From Armatimonadota bacterium (GTDB taxonomy: Bacteria; Armatimonadota; Zipacnadia; Zipacnadales; JABUFB01), in the NCBI GenBank assembly GCA_013314775.1, contig JABUFB010000003.1, positions 106,622 to 170,621 on the forward strand: a DNA stretch of 64,000 nucleotides. The letters run 5' to 3'. The stretch's first letter is position 1, and the number at the start of each line of letters is the position of its first letter. The notes beneath the pieces are model-generated. The model was not told where the DNA came from, did not search any database, and worked only from the letters and a program-made list of their open reading frames with translations. Shown piece by piece: positions 5,460 to 40,082 of the stretch. The position numbers were made by a program, and so were the translations under genes.

Positions 5460-6302
5460 GTGGCTGACAGACCACGGGTTGCGCTGATCCAGTTCCCCGG
5501 CTCAAACTGCGAGTGGGAAACCGTGCGGGCGGCCGAAGCCGGCGGCCTCGCTTGCGATGTATTCCGCTGGAATCGGGATGCCGCCTTGCTTGCCGAGTAT
5601 GACGGCTACATCATCGGCGGCGGGTTCTCTTATCAGGACCGGGTCCGCAGCGGCGCCATTGCCGCGAAGGAACCCATTGTCAATCGGGTTTTCCTCGAGG
5701 TCATGGATAAGGGCAAGCCCTGCCTGGGCATCTGTAATGGCGCGCAGGTGCTGGTGGAAGCGGGGATGATCCCCGGCATCACGCCGGGGGATGTGGAGAT
5801 GGCGCTGGCGCCGAACTTCCACGATCCGTCGGGCCGGATCGCTGGATTCTGCTGCCGGTGGGTATACCTGCGGCATTCCAGCGGTACGTGCAAGCTGACA
5901 TCCCGGATGCCCAGGGGGCAGGTCTGGCCGGTGCCCATTGCCCACGGTGAGGGGCGGTTCACCACGCGCATCGAGGGTCTGCTGGAGAAGCTGCGGGAGA
6001 ACGATCAGATCGTCTTCCAGTATTGCGATGCTGAAGGGGCACTGGATGAGAGCCGCGCTGTGAACCCCAACGGTGCGCTAGCCAATATCGCCGGCCTGTG
6101 CAACCCTGAGGGCAACGTCCTCGCGCTCATGCCTCACCCCGAGCGCGCCAGCTTCTTGCGACAGGTGCCGGGCGAATTGGGAGGGGAATGGGCCGCGGCG
6201 AAGAACCGGGCCTGGGGTAATGCGGCGGCGGCGGAAGCACCGGGCCCGGGTCTTGCAGTGTTCGAATCCATGCGCGACCTGCTTGCGGCGGTTCCTGCCT
6301 GA
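5460..6302 (+). CDS. purQ: phosphoribosylformylglycinamidine synthase glutaminase subunit PurQ, with ~50-aa C-terminal extension
   Basis: ORF track 5460..6302 (GTG start). Motifs LIQFPGSNCE, GGFSYQD, GICNGAQ, HGEGRF, MPHPER. Confidence 0.85.
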   Translation: MADRPRVALIQFPGSNCEWETVRAAEAGGLACDVFRWNRDAALLAEYDGYIIGGGFSYQDRVRSGAIAAKEPIVNRVFLEVMDKGKPCLGICNGAQVLVEAGMIPGITPGDVEMALAPNFHDPSGRIAGFCCRWVYLRHSSGTCKLTSRMPRGQVWPVPIAHGEGRFTTRIEGLLEKLRENDQIVFQYCDAEGALDESRAVNPNGALANIAGLCNPEGNVLALMPHPERASFLRQVPGELGGEWAAAKNRAWGNAAAAEAPGPGLAVFESMRDLLAAVPA

Positions 6303-6339
6303 CGCGGCGCGTTCACACCCAAGACGAGGTTTTCCCACC

Positions 6340-6864
6340 ATGGAGCATGTGGAGTTGCTGGTCAGGCTGAAGATCCCGGATGTCACTGCGCTCACGGCTG
6401 CCGGCGCATTACGACGGCGCATGGGCTACGGGGAGACGCTCAAGAGTTTGAAGCGCGCGGACTACTACAGGTTCGAAGTGGATGCGCCGGATGCCCAGTC
6501 GGCCATCGCGCTGGTGTCGGAAATCGCCGAGAAGACCAACCTGTTTGTGAACCCGAACAAGCATGTGTTCGAAGTGCGCGCGGGCGAACATGAGGCGGGG
6601 CAGTCCGCGGGCGCACAAGTGGCGCACGTGCTTGTGACCGACCCCGGTGACGGTTCGGCGGAGGGGGCGCTCGCGGCGCTGTCGGGACGGCTCGGATATG
6701 GCGACCGGGTGCGCGGGCTGCTCAAAGGGGTTCTGTGGACCCTGGAACTGGACGCGCCAGATGCCCAGGCAGCGCGAAAGATGGCGGAGGAGATTGCGAT
6801 TACCCGTCGCCGCGACCGGGGCCTTCTGATGAACCCGCATTTTCAGGAGTGCGAGGTCTGGTAG
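6340..6864 (+). CDS. purS: PurS-like protein with two tandem PurS domains
   Basis: In frame with ORF 6220..6864; start set at ATG 6340. Two ~80-aa halves (MEHVELLVRLKIPDVTALTAAGALRRRMGYGE... and AHVLVTDPGDGSAEGALAALSGRLGYGDRV...) each resemble PurS. Confidence 0.65.
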   Translation: MEHVELLVRLKIPDVTALTAAGALRRRMGYGETLKSLKRADYYRFEVDAPDAQSAIALVSEIAEKTNLFVNPNKHVFEVRAGEHEAGQSAGAQVAHVLVTDPGDGSAEGALAALSGRLGYGDRVRGLLKGVLWTLELDAPDAQAARKMAEEIAITRRRDRGLLMNPHFQECEVW

Positions 6865-7043
6865 CTAGGGAGACGGGCAGAGCTGTTGAGGGCGCAGCCC
6901 TGCTGATAGTGGGGCTGCGCCTGTCGCTTTCTGGGAGGAGTGACGGCGGCCTAACCCCCCTCGGTCTCCATCTCCTTCGCGGCGACGGCAGCCGGTCCCG
7001 GGCGTGACACCCGCGTACGCCTTTGCGTCCACAGGACGCGTGG

Positions 7044-7290
7044 CCGAAGGCCCCCAGCCCCGTGCTTCAGCGCGGGGCCAAAGGGCCAGCGCGACACCCG
7101 CGCTGTTTTCTCGTCCGAAGGCCCCCAGCCCCGTGCTTCAGCGCGGGGCCAAAGGGCCAGCGCGACACCCGCGCTGTTTTCTCGTCCGAAGGCCCCCAGC
7201 CCCGTGTTCAGCGCGGGGCCAAGGGGCCAGCGCGACACCCGCGCTCATTTCTCGTCCGAAGGCCCCCAGCCCCGTGCTTCAGCGCGGGAC
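7044..7290. repeat. tandem array of ~3.5 copies of a 71-bp hairpin-forming unit
   Basis: Unit ccgaaggcccccagccccgtgcttcagcgcggggccaaagggccagcgcgacacccgcgctgttttctcgt starts at 7044, 7115, 7186, 7256. Contains hairpin ccccgtgc-ttca-gcgcgggg. Confidence 0.85.
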
Positions 7291-7389
7291 GGCAAAGCTA
7301 TCAGCACGGGAGCCGAAGTTCCTCAAGCACTCCGTGCGTCATCCCGAAGTAACAGACACGGAAACCTTCCGAGAAGGTGGAGGCGCAAC

Positions 7390-9966
7390 GTGTCCCGGTT
7401 CTTCATTCTCCGCACCTCGTGGCCGCTAGTTATCTTTCTCCTCGCGACGGTCGAGCCGTCGGATGCCGCCGTGTCGTGCCTCATCACCACTCAACGGCCT
7501 GCACGCACCTTCTACGTGGGCGAACGACCGGTGCTCAATGTCCATGCGGATTGCGAATCCAGGGAAGTGCCGTACGAGGTGCGCGACTATGACGGCAGTG
7601 TTGTGGCGCGCGGCACCATGAGTCTCTCAGCGGACCGGCCGGAAGTGCTCGAACTGCGGCCCATGCAATGCGGGCTGTACTCGCTCGCGCTCCAATTCGG
7701 CGATGAGACGGTGACCGATGCCTTCTGCGTGATCCCGCGGCCCGGTCTCGCGAAAGGCGATCCGGGTCTTTGGGGTTTCCAGAACTCGCCCATGGAGGAG
7801 GAGCGGTACAGGCTCATCGCCCAGATGGGCGGCCGCTACCTGCGCTTCGACATCAGCTGGCCCGACTATGAGCGCAAGAAGGGTGTGTTTGTACGCACCC
7901 GCCCTGACTGGTTCGCCGCAGCGGGCCGCAAGTTCGGCCTGCAGATGATCCCGACCCTGGGCTACACCACAAGCTGGGCTTGCCTTCCCCCGGACGACAT
8001 GAGCCCGGTGCGCACCCACACCTTCGCCCCGAAAGAACTGGATCATTGGCGCATTTACGTGGAGGCGATGCGTGACATCCTCGCGCCTCAGACGGTGAAC
8101 TGGCCCTCGCCGGAGGTGGATCAGGGGGGCGTTGAGACCCTTCCCCTGGTGCGTAGTTGGGAGATCTGGAACGAGGCCGACCAGAATTACTACTATGGGC
8201 CGTGGGCGCGTTATGTGGACCTGTTGCGCATTGCTGCCTGCGCGCTGAAGCAGAAGAATCACCACGAGAAGGTTATCTACGGCGGTTCCTGCGCGCACTG
8301 GACGGAGATGGGCCGGACATACGCCATGAACGGGCAGTATTACTTCGACCAGATCGCGTGGCATTCGAACTTCGACATACAGACCCAGACCCTCGGCTAT
8401 TACTATGGCGTGCCACAGCTTGGGTACCGGCACTGGCTGCCGTGCCGGACGGTCCAGACGGAGTGTTACCCGTCGATACCCACCGGAGTGCCTCCCGGCG
8501 AGTACGTGTTGCGTCTGTATGCGACCCTGAAAGCCTGGCGCGAGGAGGGCTACTGCTACTCGCTGATCGGGCTGCCGCTTATCGGCAAGGAAGCGCCAAC
8601 TATCCCGGCTTTCACCTATCGCAACGCGACCGGGCAAATTGTCCCGAAGGCGATGTATGTGGGCTACGCGGCGACGGTGAACTTGCTGTCCGAAGCCGCC
8701 TACATCGGACCGTTGGAACTGGGCGAGGGCGTCACCGCTTACCTGTTCGCGAGCCGGGGCCGGCCTTTCGTCGTCATGTGGTCGCCCGATGGCACGCGCA
8801 CGGCCACGGTGGATCTGGAGCCCGGTGCGGTGCGCCTGGACGGACTAGGCAGGAGTTTCAAAGCCCGTGGACGCAGTGTGACCCTCAATGTGACGGGGAA
8901 ACCGGTGGTGTTCATGGGGGTCTCGGATGAATACGTCGCCCAGGCGATCCGCGCCCGCTTCGAGCTTTACCTGACCACCGAATACGGGTATGTCTACAAC
9001 GTGGATTCGCCCTACGTGCGCGCCCTTGCCACAGACATCAAGGTGGGCACGGAGGATCAGGCGGCGCGGATGCGGGCCACGCTGGCCGCGGCGCTGGAGC
9101 GGATGGGCACCAACTTCAGGCGGGACACCGCGGCCCTGGAGCCGGTGGCGCTGGACATCCGCGCATCCATGGTGAATCTCGCGAACGCGGCGGTCATGCG
9201 GGGCTCCCCCCAGGCCAATCACTGCACCGGGCTGTACCGCCTGCAACTCATGTCCGAATGGTTTGCCGATGTCATGGATGCCCTGTGCGCTCCCGTGGAA
9301 AACGCGACACGGGTGGCCGATCCGGACCCATGGGACTCTCTTGAGCAGGCGCGGGCACAGCTGGTCAGTGACCAGTTGGGCACGATGAAAGGACTGTCCG
9401 AGGCCATCGTCGACCGCGGTTTCCGCATGGCGGAGGCTTTCCGGAGACACGGCGGGCATGGGGCCTGGCTGGCGGCCATGACGGCCCGCGAAGCTGCGCT
9501 GACCTTTGCCCCGGTCGACCCGGCGAAGGTTGTGGACGTGTTCGTGATCGCCTACTTCCCCCAGGCGCGCATGATGACCAAGGCCACACTTCTACCCGCA
9601 GGAACGACGCATACCGTGGAGTTTGAGGTACATAATTTCACGCCTCAAGCCGTGTCGGGCACGGTGCGCCTGACGGTGCCGGACACGTGGACCACGAAGG
9701 AGATCACCGCCGACTTCTCTGTGGAAGCCAACAGTCTGACACCACGCATCCCGGTACAGTTCGAGATCCCCGGGTCGGATGACCCCTGGCAACTCAAGTG
9801 GGCGTACCGTCCGGGACACCCATACTGCGTCTCGATACCTCCGCAGCTTGGGACCACGGTGATCGTGACCGCCGGGGGCACGCTGTCGGACGGGCGGGAG
9901 CTGTTGCCGACACTCCAGGAGGTGAATGTTGGTACGTGGGTTCGCGACGGGACGCCGCCGTCGTGA
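7390..9966 (+). CDS. secreted glycoside hydrolase, TIM-barrel clan GH-A-like, with C-terminal beta-sandwich region
   Basis: In frame with ORF 7204..9966; start set at GTG 7390 after RBS AAGGTGGAGG, giving a signal-peptide-like N-terminus. WEIWNEAD is an NE(P)-type acid/base motif. The ORF's first 62 codons lie in the tandem repeat. Confidence 0.6.
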   Translation: MSRFFILRTSWPLVIFLLATVEPSDAAVSCLITTQRPARTFYVGERPVLNVHADCESREVPYEVRDYDGSVVARGTMSLSADRPEVLELRPMQCGLYSLALQFGDETVTDAFCVIPRPGLAKGDPGLWGFQNSPMEEERYRLIAQMGGRYLRFDISWPDYERKKGVFVRTRPDWFAAAGRKFGLQMIPTLGYTTSWACLPPDDMSPVRTHTFAPKELDHWRIYVEAMRDILAPQTVNWPSPEVDQGGVETLPLVRSWEIWNEADQNYYYGPWARYVDLLRIAACALKQKNHHEKVIYGGSCAHWTEMGRTYAMNGQYYFDQIAWHSNFDIQTQTLGYYYGVPQLGYRHWLPCRTVQTECYPSIPTGVPPGEYVLRLYATLKAWREEGYCYSLIGLPLIGKEAPTIPAFTYRNATGQIVPKAMYVGYAATVNLLSEAAYIGPLELGEGVTAYLFASRGRPFVVMWSPDGTRTATVDLEPGAVRLDGLGRSFKARGRSVTLNVTGKPVVFMGVSDEYVAQAIRARFELYLTTEYGYVYNVDSPYVRALATDIKVGTEDQAARMRATLAAALERMGTNFRRDTAALEPVALDIRASMVNLANAAVMRGSPQANHCTGLYRLQLMSEWFADVMDALCAPVENATRVADPDPWDSLEQARAQLVSDQLGTMKGLSEAIVDRGFRMAEAFRRHGGHGAWLAAMTAREAALTFAPVDPAKVVDVFVIAYFPQARMMTKATLLPAGTTHTVEFEVHNFTPQAVSGTVRLTVPDTWTTKEITADFSVEANSLTPRIPVQFEIPGSDDPWQLKWAYRPGHPYCVSIPPQLGTTVIVTAGGTLSDGRELLPTLQEVNVGTWVRDGTPPS

Positions 9967-9994
9967 TAGCGCTCCCTGATCTTCTGAGCGGACG

Positions 9995-10310
9995 CTGGTC
10001 TCACAGCCCGCGAAGGGGCTGGAACCGTAGTCAGCGGCCGAATCGCGTCTCCTGAGCTGCCGAAGAGGGCAACAGTGATGATGAGAACACCGGGCGGTTG
10101 TGCTGCCCTTCCAGGGGCTCCCGGGTGATTATCAAGCGCCGGCGTCCGAGGGCTTCCCGCCCCCGGCTACAGGGTGTGGGCGACGACCGAGGGCAAAGGG
10201 CACGCTGATCGCGCATTCGGCCTCAGCCGGCACGTATCTCACAGGAGCGAGGGTCCTGGGGCTTCGCGCCGTCCGCTTGACCTTTGCGGACGGCGCTTCG
10301 TATAATGCCA
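9995..10310 (+). repeat. conserved promoter-proximal element, copy A
   Basis: Shares tctcacagcccgcgaag and gATGATGAGAACaCCGGGCGGTTGTG cores, plus caaagggc and agccggcacg blocks, with copies B and C. Confidence 0.6.
10277..10306 (+). promoter_or_regulatory. sigma70-like promoter TTGACC-18-TATAAT, with a palindrome across the -35 box
   Basis: -35 at 10277-10282, -10 at 10301-10306; inverted repeat ccgtccgc / gcggacgg flanks the -35. Confidence 0.5.
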
Positions 10311-10407
10311 GCGCATTCCGGCCGCAACTTGCGGCGGCGCTCGATGTCGGATTACTTGGGCTGATGGGCCCGAACCGCAGATCAGTCGTCAAAGGAGCCT
10401 CCACGCG

Positions 10408-16609: not shown

Positions 16610-16617
16610 CGTCCAAG

Positions 16618-16710
16618 CGTCGCTAGGGGAGCCCACCCGGGCTGAGATAGCGGAGACCCCGCTGACCCTGGGAACCTGATCCGGTTAGTACCGGCGTAGG
16701 GAAGCGACAG
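16618..16710 (+). promoter_or_regulatory. TPP (THI-box) riboswitch
   Basis: Conserved THI-element blocks in order: GGGGAGCCC...GCTGAGA...ACCC...TGACCCTGGGAACCTGATCCGGTTAGTACCGGCGTAGGGAAG; followed by a GC-rich hairpin (ggcggccc / gggccgcc) and RBS AAAGGAG before thi4. Confidence 0.85.
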
Positions 16711-16803
16711 ACGAGCGCCTGATATGGGTCGCCGGCTGCATGCTTCCTCAAGATGCCGGCGGCCCTTTATTTTGGGGCCGCCGCACCGAAAGGAGCGGTC
16801 TCG

Positions 16804-17601
16804 ATGAGTCAGATCAAGGAAACACTGATTACCCGCCTCATCGTCGATGCCTTCGCGGAGGACTTTCGCGAATCTCTGGAACTGGATGTGGCCATCGCGG
16901 GAGCGGGGCCGTCCGGAATCCACGCCGCGAAACTCCTCGCTCGACGGGGATACAAGGTGGGCGTGTTCGAGCGCAACCTTCACGTCGGCGGCGGCATGTG
17001 GGGCGGCGGCATGCTCTTCCCGCGCATCGTTGTCCAGGAGGATGCTCGGGCCATCCTGGAGGAGGTGGGTGTGCGTCTGAATGAGCGCGAGACCGGCCTG
17101 TACACCGCCGATTCCGTAGAGACAGTGAGCAAGTGCGCGGCGGCAGCAATCGACGCGGGGGCGCGGATCTGGGTGGGCGTGTCGGTGGAGGATGTCATCA
17201 TCCGCGAGGCCGACCGGGTCTCGGGCATTGTCATCAACTGGGGTGCGGTGGAGATGGCCGGCCTGCACGTGGACCCGCTGGCGTTGGAGGCGAAGGTGGT
17301 CATCGACGCCACCGGGCATCCAGCTGAGGTTGCCCGGCGGGTGCTGGCGAAGATCCCCGGCGCGTGCCTGTGCGACGGCGCCACCTGCGTTCCCGGCGAG
17401 AAGCCGATGTGGGCCGAAGTGGGGGAAGGGTCGCTGGTGCCCAATACCCGCGAGATATACCCCGGTCTGATCGCCTGCGGGATGGCGGCCAACGCGGTGT
17501 TCGCAGGCCCCCGCATGGGTGCTATCTTCGGAGGGATGTTCCTGTCCGGGGAGAGAGCAGCGGAGATAGCGGTGGAGATGATGGGACACAGGGTATTATA
17601 A
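16804..17601 (+). CDS. thi4: thiazole synthase Thi4 family
   Basis: In frame with ORF 16753..17601; start set at ATG 16804. FAD motif AIAGAGPSGIHAA, GGGMWGGGMLF, DATGHPAEV. Confidence 0.8.
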   Translation: MSQIKETLITRLIVDAFAEDFRESLELDVAIAGAGPSGIHAAKLLARRGYKVGVFERNLHVGGGMWGGGMLFPRIVVQEDARAILEEVGVRLNERETGLYTADSVETVSKCAAAAIDAGARIWVGVSVEDVIIREADRVSGIVINWGAVEMAGLHVDPLALEAKVVIDATGHPAEVARRVLAKIPGACLCDGATCVPGEKPMWAEVGEGSLVPNTREIYPGLIACGMAANAVFAGPRMGAIFGGMFLSGERAAEIAVEMMGHRVL

Positions 17602-29730: not shown

Positions 29731-30356
29731 GCTGGCGTCCCGCGCTGGCGCCCCGGGTTGACGCCCCGGGTTGAAACCCGGGGCTAGGGGCCTTCGGCCG
29801 GGCGTCCTGCGGACGGGCTTTCCTGTCCCGCGCTGGCGCCCCGCGCTGAAGCACGGGGCTGTGGGCCTTCGGCCGTGCGTCCTACGGACGGGCTTTCCCG
29901 TCCCGCGCTGACGCCCCGCGCTGAAGCACGGGGCTGTGGGCCTTCGGCCGGGCGTCCTGAGGGACGCGAAGATTGACGCCCCGGGTTGACGCCCCGGGTT
30001 GAAACCCGGGGCTAGGGGCCTTCGGCCGGGCGTCCTGAGGGACGCGAAGGCTGAGCGTCCCGCTCGACAGGCCGTTCGCCGTTGCCGTCCAGCCCCGAAG
30101 GGGCGTCAGTCTCTTGCCACCAGCGTAAGCTGGTGGAATCAGGCCCCCATCGAGATTATAAGAGCCCCCGAAGGGGGCGGCAGAAACCCGAGCTCCGCCT
30201 GCGGGGGCGTCGATGCCCCGCGCTGACGCCCCGCGCTGAAGCACGGGGCTGTGGGCCTTCGGCCGTGCGTCCTGCGGACGGGCTTTCCTGTCCCACGCTG
30301 GCGCCCCGCGCTGAAGCACGGGGCTGTGGGCCTTCGGCCGGGCGTGCTGCGGACGG
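29731..30356. repeat. GC-rich multi-hairpin repeat array, locus 2
   Basis: Shuffled modules: gccccgcgctgaagcacggggc, ggccttcggcc (UUCG loop), ccccgggttgaaacccgggg, ccaccagcgtaagctggtgg (GNRA loop), gagcccccgaagggggc. Lies between convergent gene ends. Confidence 0.8.
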
Positions 30357-30437
30357 TATGGCGGACACGAGTGCCAGATCAGGCCCACAGACATACGATC
30401 ACGGCCATTGTGCGTCTGGCTGAGCCGGTCACCCCCC

Positions 30438-39334: not shown

Positions 39335-40082
39335 GGCGGGCTCGCGTAAGCCGACCGTCCCGGTCGGCGGGTGTCATTGGAGTCGAGCGGGACGCTCGAC
39401 CTTCGCGTCCCTAAGGACGCCTGGCCGAAGGCCCCTAGCCCCGTGCTTCAGCGCGGGGCATCAATTCGGGGCACCGACTCAACCCGGGGCATCAACCCGG
39501 GGCGTCTGCCGCCCCCTTCGGGGGCTCTTATGATCTCGAAGGAGGGGCCTGATTCCACCAGCTTACGCTGGTGGCAAGAGGCTGACGCCCCTGCGGGGCT
39601 GGACGGCGAACGGCGAACGGCCTGTCGAGCGGGACGCTCGACCTTCGCGTCCCTCAGGACGCCTGGCCGCAGGCCCCTAGCCCCGGGTTTCAGCGCGGGG
39701 CGTCGATCCGGGGCATCGACGTCGCGTCCGGCAGGACGCCCGGCCGAAGGCCCCTAGCCCCGTGCTTCAGCGCGGGGCGTCGATCCGGGGCGCCTGCCGC
39801 CTCCTTCGGGGGCTCTTATGATCTCGAAGGAGGGGCCTGATTCCACCAGCTCACGCTGGTGGCAAAGGGCTTCCGCCCCTTCGGGGCTGGACGGCGAACG
39901 GCGAACGGCCTGTCGAGCGGGACGCTCCGCCTTCGCGTCCCTCAGGACGCCTGGCCGCAGGCCCCTAGCCCCGGGTTTCAACCCGGGGCGTCAACCCGGG
40001 GCATCGACGTCGCGTCCGGCAGGACGCCCGGCCGCAGGCCCCTAGCCCCGGGTTTCAGCCCGGGGGCATCCCGGTCGGCGGC
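39335..40082. repeat. GC-rich multi-hairpin repeat array, locus 3 (inverted relative to locus 2)
   Basis: Same modules as locus 2 in reverse-complement orientation, e.g. ctgccgcccccttcgggggctcttatgatctcgaaggaggggcctgattccaccagcttacgctggtggcaagag; a ~230-bp block is internally duplicated. Confidence 0.8.

Follow-up and report, generated by a model that had tools for sequence, protein, structure and literature searches.

A 71-bp tandem array between purS and a GH39-like gene in an Armatimonadota bacterium is probably an amplified REP-like hairpin repeat

MIRU-type VNTRs are head-to-tail arrays of 50–100-bp units at several intergenic loci, between genes of the same strand, and provide natural copy-number markers; MIRUs carry small ORFs that overlap the stop and start codons of the flanking genes. 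MITEs, Correia/NIME, BOX and ERIC elements are non-autonomous, structured, intergenic and modular, and they can carry terminator or promoter activity. Closest to the locus described here are the REP-type repeats, represented by the BIMEs of E. coli and by the RAYT-mobilised REPINs of Pseudomonas. The definition of a REP includes a conserved 5′ GT[A/G]G adjoining the palindrome, and effects of REPs on transcription and on the stability of mRNA have been reported (PMC3686654). Ordered tandem REP arrays are documented in P. fluorescens SBW25 (PMC3116915). No REP elements are reported for the phylum Armatimonadota in the literature that we searched.

Here we analyse a tandem array in a window of 64,000 nucleotides, which is the whole stretch of DNA considered, from an Armatimonadota metagenome-assembled genome (MAG; locus tag HPY44). 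Our best reading is that a dispersed hairpin repeat family of Armatimonadota, non-coding, non-autonomous and similar to REP, BIME and REPIN elements, was amplified at this locus to give the array.

Structure of the array

Tandem Repeats Finder (TRF) reports the array at 7044–7288, with a period of 71, 3.5 copies as represented in a single MAG assembly, 97% matches and a score of 462. The first-pass annotation had placed hairpin-containing 71-bp repeats between purS and a hydrolase gene, and this description is borne out. The hairpin HP3, CCCCGTGC-TTCA-GCGCGGGG, is found in every array copy, and its 20-mer, with up to three mismatches, occurs 11 times in the window versus 0.04 times expected from shuffles. 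Copies 1 (7044–7114) and 2 (7115–7185) show no differences. Copy 3 (7186–7255) differs by three substitutions and by the loss of 1 bp in the region of the hairpin loop, and copy 4 (7256–7288) is partial, consisting of the initial 33 nt. Both strands of the array region fold better than shuffled sequence, the + strand (z = −7.4) more so than the − strand (z = −4.1).

The 71-bp unit is made of two parts. Module A (positions 1–35, CCGAAGGCCCCCAGCCCCGTGCTTCAGCGCGGGGC) is the family core with HP3 and is 97% identical to copies at 29.75–30.36 kb (− strand) and 39.40–40.08 kb (+ strand). Module B (36 bp, CAAAGGGCCAGCGCGACACCCGCGCTGTTTTCTCGT) occurs only at this locus, except for a short GCCAGCGCG that also appears in the tails of the 29.8-kb units. 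The previous assignment of the array to the same family as those at 29731 and 39335 therefore holds for positions 1–35 of the unit but not for the other 36 bp, and the periods differ as well (75–77 bp in the other two arrays vs 71 here). The features of the array are as follows; R1 is a covariance model built from 37 copies of the family.

7002..7018, + strand: degenerate 'zeroth' module-B hairpin GCGTGACACCCGCGTAC (local alignment of 6980–7062 with the in-array junction)
7025..7077, + strand: the only complete three-hairpin module of the 7-kb locus (R1 match at 7021–7089, 66 bits, E = 3e-19)
7025–7039, + strand: HP1, GCGTCC-ACA-GGACGC, directly 5′ of copy 1
7042–7052, + strand: HP2, GGCC-GAA-GGCC
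7058–7077, + strand: HP3, as given above
7044..7288, + strand: tandem array, 3.5 × 71 bp (TRF, copy listing, BLAST, RNA fold)
7087..7114, + strand: module B of copy 1, terminator-like CAGCGCG-ACACC-CGCGCTG followed by TTTTCTCGT (terminator scan, RNAfold)
7158..7185, + strand: module B of copy 2, terminator-like hairpin and T-run the same as in copy 1 (terminator scan)
7229..7255, + strand: module B of copy 3, weaker, with a 6-bp stem and CATTTCTCGT (terminator scan)

Every in-array junction lacks the identical 15 bp, ACAGGACGCGTGGCC, which comprise HP1 and half of HP2, and copies 2–4 accordingly have no HP1 and a halved HP2. The zeroth module-B hairpin, together with HP1 and HP2 lying 5′ of copy 1, indicates that the repeated structure truly begins near 7002.

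Module B has the appearance of an intrinsic terminator. A 7-bp GC stem with a 5-nt loop (−12.6 kcal/mol, RNAfold) is followed by UGUUUUCU or TGTTTTCT on the + strand, the one transcribed from purS. A consensus terminator scan found three + strand sites in the array (7087–7105, 7158–7176 and 7229–7245); the scanned region had four terminator-like sites in total versus 0.8 expected, and the arrays at 29.8 and 39.4 kb had no terminator-like hairpins. Like intrinsic terminators, module B matches the consensus and has a GC-rich stem-loop directly followed by a U-run on the sense strand. Unlike them, it stands in three tandem copies 3′ of an existing conserved terminator, and its T-run is short and interrupted. 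On the strength of the consensus match, we regard module B as a candidate terminator.

Might the array, or its copy number, be the product of a mis-assembled multi-copy repeat in a short-read MAG? Two Logan short-read contigs from this strain (SRR6186653) break within the first and last copies, one stopping at 7071 and the other resuming at 7269, and two identical copies could be collapsed or expanded in a de Bruijn graph. Such breaks are the expected effect of a multi-copy repeat on a k-mer graph, and because of them the array copy number depends on the MAG assembly only, in which identical copies could be collapsed. However, the repeat core stands in its expected surroundings at both contig ends, four differences are private to copy 3, the A–B junctions are locus-specific, and a multi-copy A-B-A structure is the minimum that must exist. 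An artefact is thus extremely unlikely.

The array can be set against the VNTR and MITE classes. As with MIRU-type VNTRs, one family forms head-to-tail arrays at several intergenic loci. The array differs from MIRUs in that its 71-bp period is not divisible by 3 and it reaches neither flanking gene; sequence kinship with MIRUs is not to be expected. With MITEs and mosaic repeats the array shares a non-autonomous, structured and intergenic character, and some modules are tandemly iterated, but it has no flanking terminal inverted repeats, no identifiable target-site duplication and no known parent IS. Inverted repeats of at least 12 bp are absent from 6860–7400, and we rejected classification as a MITE. 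Other candidates were discarded too. The whole unit, including what would be the 'spacer', is repeated at 94–100% identity across the array, module B included, and the scanned ORFs contain no cas domains, which does not fit a CRISPR. A coding repeat is contradicted by the period, and the ORFs over the array are unsupported. There are no tRNA or tmRNA genes.

A hairpin repeat family of Armatimonadota

The family module, anchored on GGCCGMAGGCC, consists of HP1, two bases, HP2 (GGCC-GMA-GGCC), CNNAG and HP3 (CCCC-NNNN-TTCA-NNNN-GGGG). HP2 is invariant. HP1 varies in sequence with its stem maintained (GCGTCC/GGACGC, GTGTCCGC/GCGGACAC, GTGACCGC/GCGGTCAC and GTTCCG/CGGAAC); its pair counts on the model-fitted alignment are unreliable, the 5′ arm being out of register between lineages. 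The inner pairs of HP3 are GTGC/GCGC, GGGT/ACCC or GGAA/TTCC around a constant TTCA loop. Three pairs are changed on both sides in the ungapped alignment and five in the model-fitted one, changes that separate few subfamilies or lineages and so represent few independent events. The covariation score was 0.241 versus 0.075 for shuffled alignments (0/500), and sliding the 3′ partners by 1–3 columns gave at most 0.097. The three-hairpin fold is the minimum-free-energy structure of the single-stranded DNA in both lineages, and it is also the RNA fold.

The R1 census counted 15 copies in the 64-kb window, all of them direct tandem repeats within three intergenic loci; the rest of the window gave nothing under E = 1e-3 with this model. 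The two loci other than the 7-kb array are the following.

29752..30361, − strand: second locus, six three-hairpin modules (period 75) and a long module, between the convergent genes for an ABC permease (+) and an RGL11-like protein (−) (TRF, R1)
39401..40077, + strand: third locus, five three-hairpin modules (period 77, super-period 288), between the convergent genes for an MR_MLE protein (+) and a GH38 protein (−) (TRF, R1)

These two loci have further features of their own. Direct repeats of 13 nt, NTCARCSCGGGGC, reiterate the 3′ arm of HP3 directly after the hairpin in two or three copies (29749–29782, 29973–30010, 39479–39503 and 39970–40002; none in the 7044 array), and they are alternative pairing partners for the HP3 5′ arm. 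The long module with the 288-bp period gives near-threshold Rfam matches to Acido-Lenti-1 RNA (RF01687) at 39555–39600 and 39843–39888 on the + strand, with scores of 34.1 and 27.0 bits (E = 7e-6 and 6e-4) where the gathering score is 37, and is also present at about 30070–30200 on the − strand. At these loci, the described Acido-Lenti-1 'RNA motif' may be one of the modules that build up a mosaic repeat.

Searches with family patterns outside the window returned a restricted distribution. An exact search with a 36-nt degenerate pattern gave no match in 185,579 species-representative genomes and matched one contig in JGI metagenomes (L005), as a single intergenic copy. A 21-nt pattern matched 107 stretches in the same 185,579 genomes, about 80 of which are chance matches in genes of GC-rich genomes, without HP1 and HP3. 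Matches accompanied by HP1 and a TTCA-loop HP3 were confined to three Armatimonadota MAGs: Chthonomonadales JBBRLP01, Chthonomonadaceae CBDIDV01 and Armatimonadota Gw_SlDig_bin_68 JAGPGE01. JBBRLP01 has at least 22 exact-pattern copies on 19 contigs. Its element is longer and is typically found as inverted pairs, arranged head to head at a distance of 144 bp and including about 90 bp of further conserved sequence; inverted pairs spaced by 144–150 bp are common in this MAG and also occur in L065. The stop-free frames of the JBBRLP01 copies are long, as they generally are in GC-rich DNA. The element of JAGPGE01 is single. A scan of viral contigs gave three chance matches.

The family thus has much in common with REP, BIME and REPIN elements: its members are short, GC-rich, imperfect palindromes that are extragenic and present in many copies; they are found singly, as inverted doublets and in ordered tandem arrays, in mosaics with other short motifs; and the sequence is lineage-specific with the stem kept, while presence or absence varies between close relatives. 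There are also differences. The family has three consecutive hairpins, not one palindrome. The GT[A/G]G signature is inconsistent: positions before HP1 and HP3 are variable, and on the complementary strand HP2 is preceded by CTGTGG, CTAGGG, CTGGGG or CTATGG depending on the copy, with GTGG in a subset only. The inverted pairs of JBBRLP01 depart from REPINs in their spacing and extra conserved sequence. No transposase domain, RAYT or other, was found among the 46 ORFs of the window, and a regular expression for a Y-x3-NP-type motif matched nothing in about 210 kb of Armatimonadota loci containing the family. Because of the inconsistent GT[A/G]G and the absence of a RAYT from the scanned loci, we describe the family as REP/BIME-like rather than assign it to the RAYT-dependent REPs. 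With it, a phylum that has received little study gains a REP-like family of conserved structure that had not been described before.

One suggestion as to how such a family might spread is that the three-hairpin module is acted on by a putative enzyme of Armatimonadota that works on single-strand DNA (a RAYT-like HUH transposase or one of another kind) and that would itself generate the direct-repeat arrays. We consider this unlikely, if worth keeping in mind. If true, it would be a REP-type host/element system, none of which is described in the phylum, with a different architecture (no GTAG, three hairpins).

Conserved stems may also point to a structured RNA, that is, a small RNA or a cis-acting 3′-UTR element of which the array would encode several copies. 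The stem covariation and the conserved TTCA loop are consistent with such a role, as are a G-U pair in HP3 that is tolerated on the shown strand only and the better folding of the + strand. Yet in the Chthonomonadales MAG the module is found in both orientations, as inverted pairs, and the promoter scan of the array region gave no promoter-like site. HP1 and one half of HP2 are missing from array copies 2–4, and presence in some lineages with absence from others is the usual pattern of mobile repeats. Moreover, the 71-bp unit matches no Rfam family at the gathering score, and matches within 6860–7400 are sub-threshold chance ones, the best being mir-326 with 27.5 bits against a threshold of 66. 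A structured RNA is consequently a very improbable explanation. The one gathering-level match of the window is an ordinary TPP riboswitch (RF00059, 76.8 bits) at 16615–16719, directly 5′ of a Thi4-family gene (16753–17601).

Flanking genes and the conserved promoter-like block

The genes and conserved elements that flank the array are listed below.

6340..6864, + strand: purS, the upstream gene, encoding a fused double PurS of 174 aa (Pfam PurS; aligns with the 174-aa PurS of L002; exact protein match in L006)
6890..6933, + strand: purS terminator-like hairpin (6890–6922, about −30 kcal/mol) followed by TGTCGCTTTCT (RNAfold; alignment with L115, L125, L126 and L132)
7322..7353, + strand: promoter-like motif CTCAAG-N16-CCGAAGTAAC (conserved in L001, L115–L133, L002, L003 and L137)
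7354..7389, + strand: conserved leader with the hairpin CGGAA-ACC-TTCCG and the Shine–Dalgarno (SD) sequence GGAGG at 7379–7383 (alignments)
7390..9966, + strand: gene for an 858-aa secreted GH39-like (clan GH-A) glycosidase candidate (profile vs PDB, AF2, Foldseek)

The protein encoded by the downstream gene (NSW55015.1 / HPY44_03300) carries a signal peptide and has 30 homologues, all hypothetical. It had been called a glycoside hydrolase. No Pfam or NCBIfam match backs this label, but evidence from fold and remote profile comparison does. The profile of the homologues matches the GH39 structure 5jvk_A at 7e-14 and also PslG. Foldseek with the AF2 model (pLDDT 91.1) likewise returned GH39 5jvk_A as the top match (E = 5.7e-19, TM 0.70 on target), with PslG next at about 1e-12. 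Conservation extends to the WEIWNE and TE motifs, with E262 and E358 invariant and N261 nearly so. These features match the (beta/alpha)8 barrel of clan GH-A/GH39, with its N-E acid/base and E nucleophile, although the catalytic roles would be assigned by analogy. Given the profile and fold matches and the conserved motifs, it is reasonable to regard the protein as a distant GH39-like glycosidase of clan GH-A.

The start of this gene is GTG 7390, since all full-length homologues (854–858 aa) align from it; GGAGG stands just upstream. The mechanical ORF that begins at 7204 is a 62-codon in-frame extension reaching copy 3, and this start is an artefact of an open frame that continues into that copy. 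It had been suspected already that the repeat inflates the ORF call, and rightly so. The contig breaks, too, are accounted for by the array.

How do the flanks of the array compare among relatives? The spacer between purS and the hydrolase gene is 525 bp in the window and ranges from 49 to 525 bp over lineages. In the sister lineage (93% aa identity; L115, L125, L126 and L132 bridge purS and the hydrolase gene) it is 314 bp, and in L002 (70%) 211 bp; neither contains a family copy. At syntenic loci of greater divergence, the spacer measures 456 bp in L137 and 49 bp in P0010. The remaining members of the 90% protein cluster are all about 93% identical and belong to the sister lineage, and the lineage with the array is represented by one strain. 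The two ends of the spacer are conserved. The purS terminator hairpin has near-identical sequence in the sister lineage, and a hairpin of different sequence takes its place in L002. The ~80 bp that immediately precede the hydrolase start (7309–7389) are kept in relatives without the array: L001/L115 (93% aa), L002 (70%), L003 (50%, with another upstream gene) and L137 (49%). Between the purS terminator and this promoter-proximal block, the sequence is unrelated among lineages. No target-site duplication or clean empty site is definable from the lineage alignment because the whole middle of the spacer differs. The spacer thus appears to be a hot spot in which different repeat families are found per lineage between a fixed terminator and a fixed promoter-proximal block.

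The conserved block holds CTCAAG-N16-CCGAAGTA(AC) at 7322–7353, a small hairpin and the SD sequence. The motif CTCAAG-N16-CCGAAGTA has one match in the window versus 0 expected and is found in relatives at L002:1664–1693, L003:6563–6592 and L137:1434–1463. It is unlike sigma-70, and a sigma-70 promoter scan gave no hit in or 5′ of the array. The motif is conserved 5′ of the GH39-like gene over the range of 49–100% aa identity, regardless of what adjoins it further 5′, and is a candidate promoter or regulator site.

The first-pass annotation had suggested that copy-number change in the array could alter the promoter or 5′ UTR of the hydrolase gene. On this view, slippage would tune or phase-vary expression through leader hairpins or promoter spacing. 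Some observations are in line with this: the array ends 101 bp from the start codon, on the same strand as the gene, its near-identical copies are slippage-prone, and L003 also has a tandem repeat, of unrelated sequence, 5′ of the same gene. However, relatives that lack the array keep the motif and the leader (7322–7389), which in the window are situated 3′ of the array, a change in unit number leaves the 34 bp adjoining the motif unchanged, and no sigma-70-like promoter lies in or before the array. In addition, every unit contains a terminator-like hairpin on the sense strand, which would hardly fit a productive leader. We therefore find the proposal quite unlikely. The same annotation took a transcription start downstream of the array as an argument against its own idea, and the comparison of relatives suggests just such a start. 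The array, positioned 3′ of the native purS terminator and about 34 bp 5′ of the promoter-like motif, is probably outside both mature transcripts; judging by the alignments, it would not be part of the hydrolase leader and does not appear to regulate the hydrolase.

Origin and possible effect of the array

The following scenario would account for the array. A REP-like element may have landed in the dispensable middle of the purS–hydrolase spacer, where a 36-bp segment came to lie between two direct cores (A-B-A). The 35-bp cores could then have recombined unequally or slipped during replication, giving A-B-A-B-A-B-A. The junction loss of 15 bp, shared by all in-array junctions, and the identity of copies 1 and 2 suggest that the amplification is recent. 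Its most likely effect would be none, or else a stack of three back-up terminators that block read-through from purQS.

Such back-up terminators raise the question of selection. The array might be a selected insulator, whose three tandem terminators and stable 3′ hairpins would stop purQS read-through and protect the 3′ end of the purQS mRNA. The three sense sites, each a hairpin with a T-run, and the excess of such sites over expectation in the scanned region favor this idea, and T-runs are unusual at 65% GC and absent from the other arrays. Nevertheless, a strong, conserved purS terminator hairpin is already present 5′ of the array, relatives manage without the array, and its identical copies point to recent amplification rather than long retention. 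A selected insulator thus seems rather improbable. We favor the view that the array is a selfish or neutral amplified REP-like repeat, at most a redundant insulator, and assign this reading a probability of roughly 70%. The array could also serve as a copy-number marker of this uncultured Armatimonadota lineage, of use in annotation, assembly and strain typing.

Several minor observations concern the neighborhood of the array. The gene order purQ–purS–GH39-like is kept from 43% to 100% aa identity (window 5460–9966; L002, L115, L137 and P0010), linking a purine-synthesis pair with a secreted glycosidase. PurS itself is a fused tandem duplication with two PurS-like halves, in L002 as well, and a mechanical ORF from 6220 over-extends purS into purQ. 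The tandem repeat of L003 (6364–6539) is purine-rich and AACGACAGGAAG-like, with periods of 12, 36 and 60, and lies directly 5′ of the conserved motif; it is a second, independent tandem repeat at the position upstream of the hydrolase motif.

The contigs of the sister lineage contain a classical REP, GTGGGAGCGGGCTTGCCCGCGA, which is identical at 22 of 23 positions to the Pseudomonas REP class PF13 (PMC3686654). It is found at L115:1047–1126 and L115:2795–2818, as well as in L125, L132 and L126, forming a REPIN-like inverted doublet in the oxidoreductase–purQ spacer and a single copy in the purS–hydrolase spacer. There is a single match at L037:3043–3058 and no copy in the window, and many Logan contigs end exactly at this sequence. 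Finally, the spacer 3′ of the hydrolase gene (9967–10407; L001:2660–3032) is rich in GC hairpins and differs between the window and the 93% relative; some of its hairpins, such as GCCGCCCC(T)TNNNGGGGCTC-type stems, resemble the long module of the 39.5-kb array.
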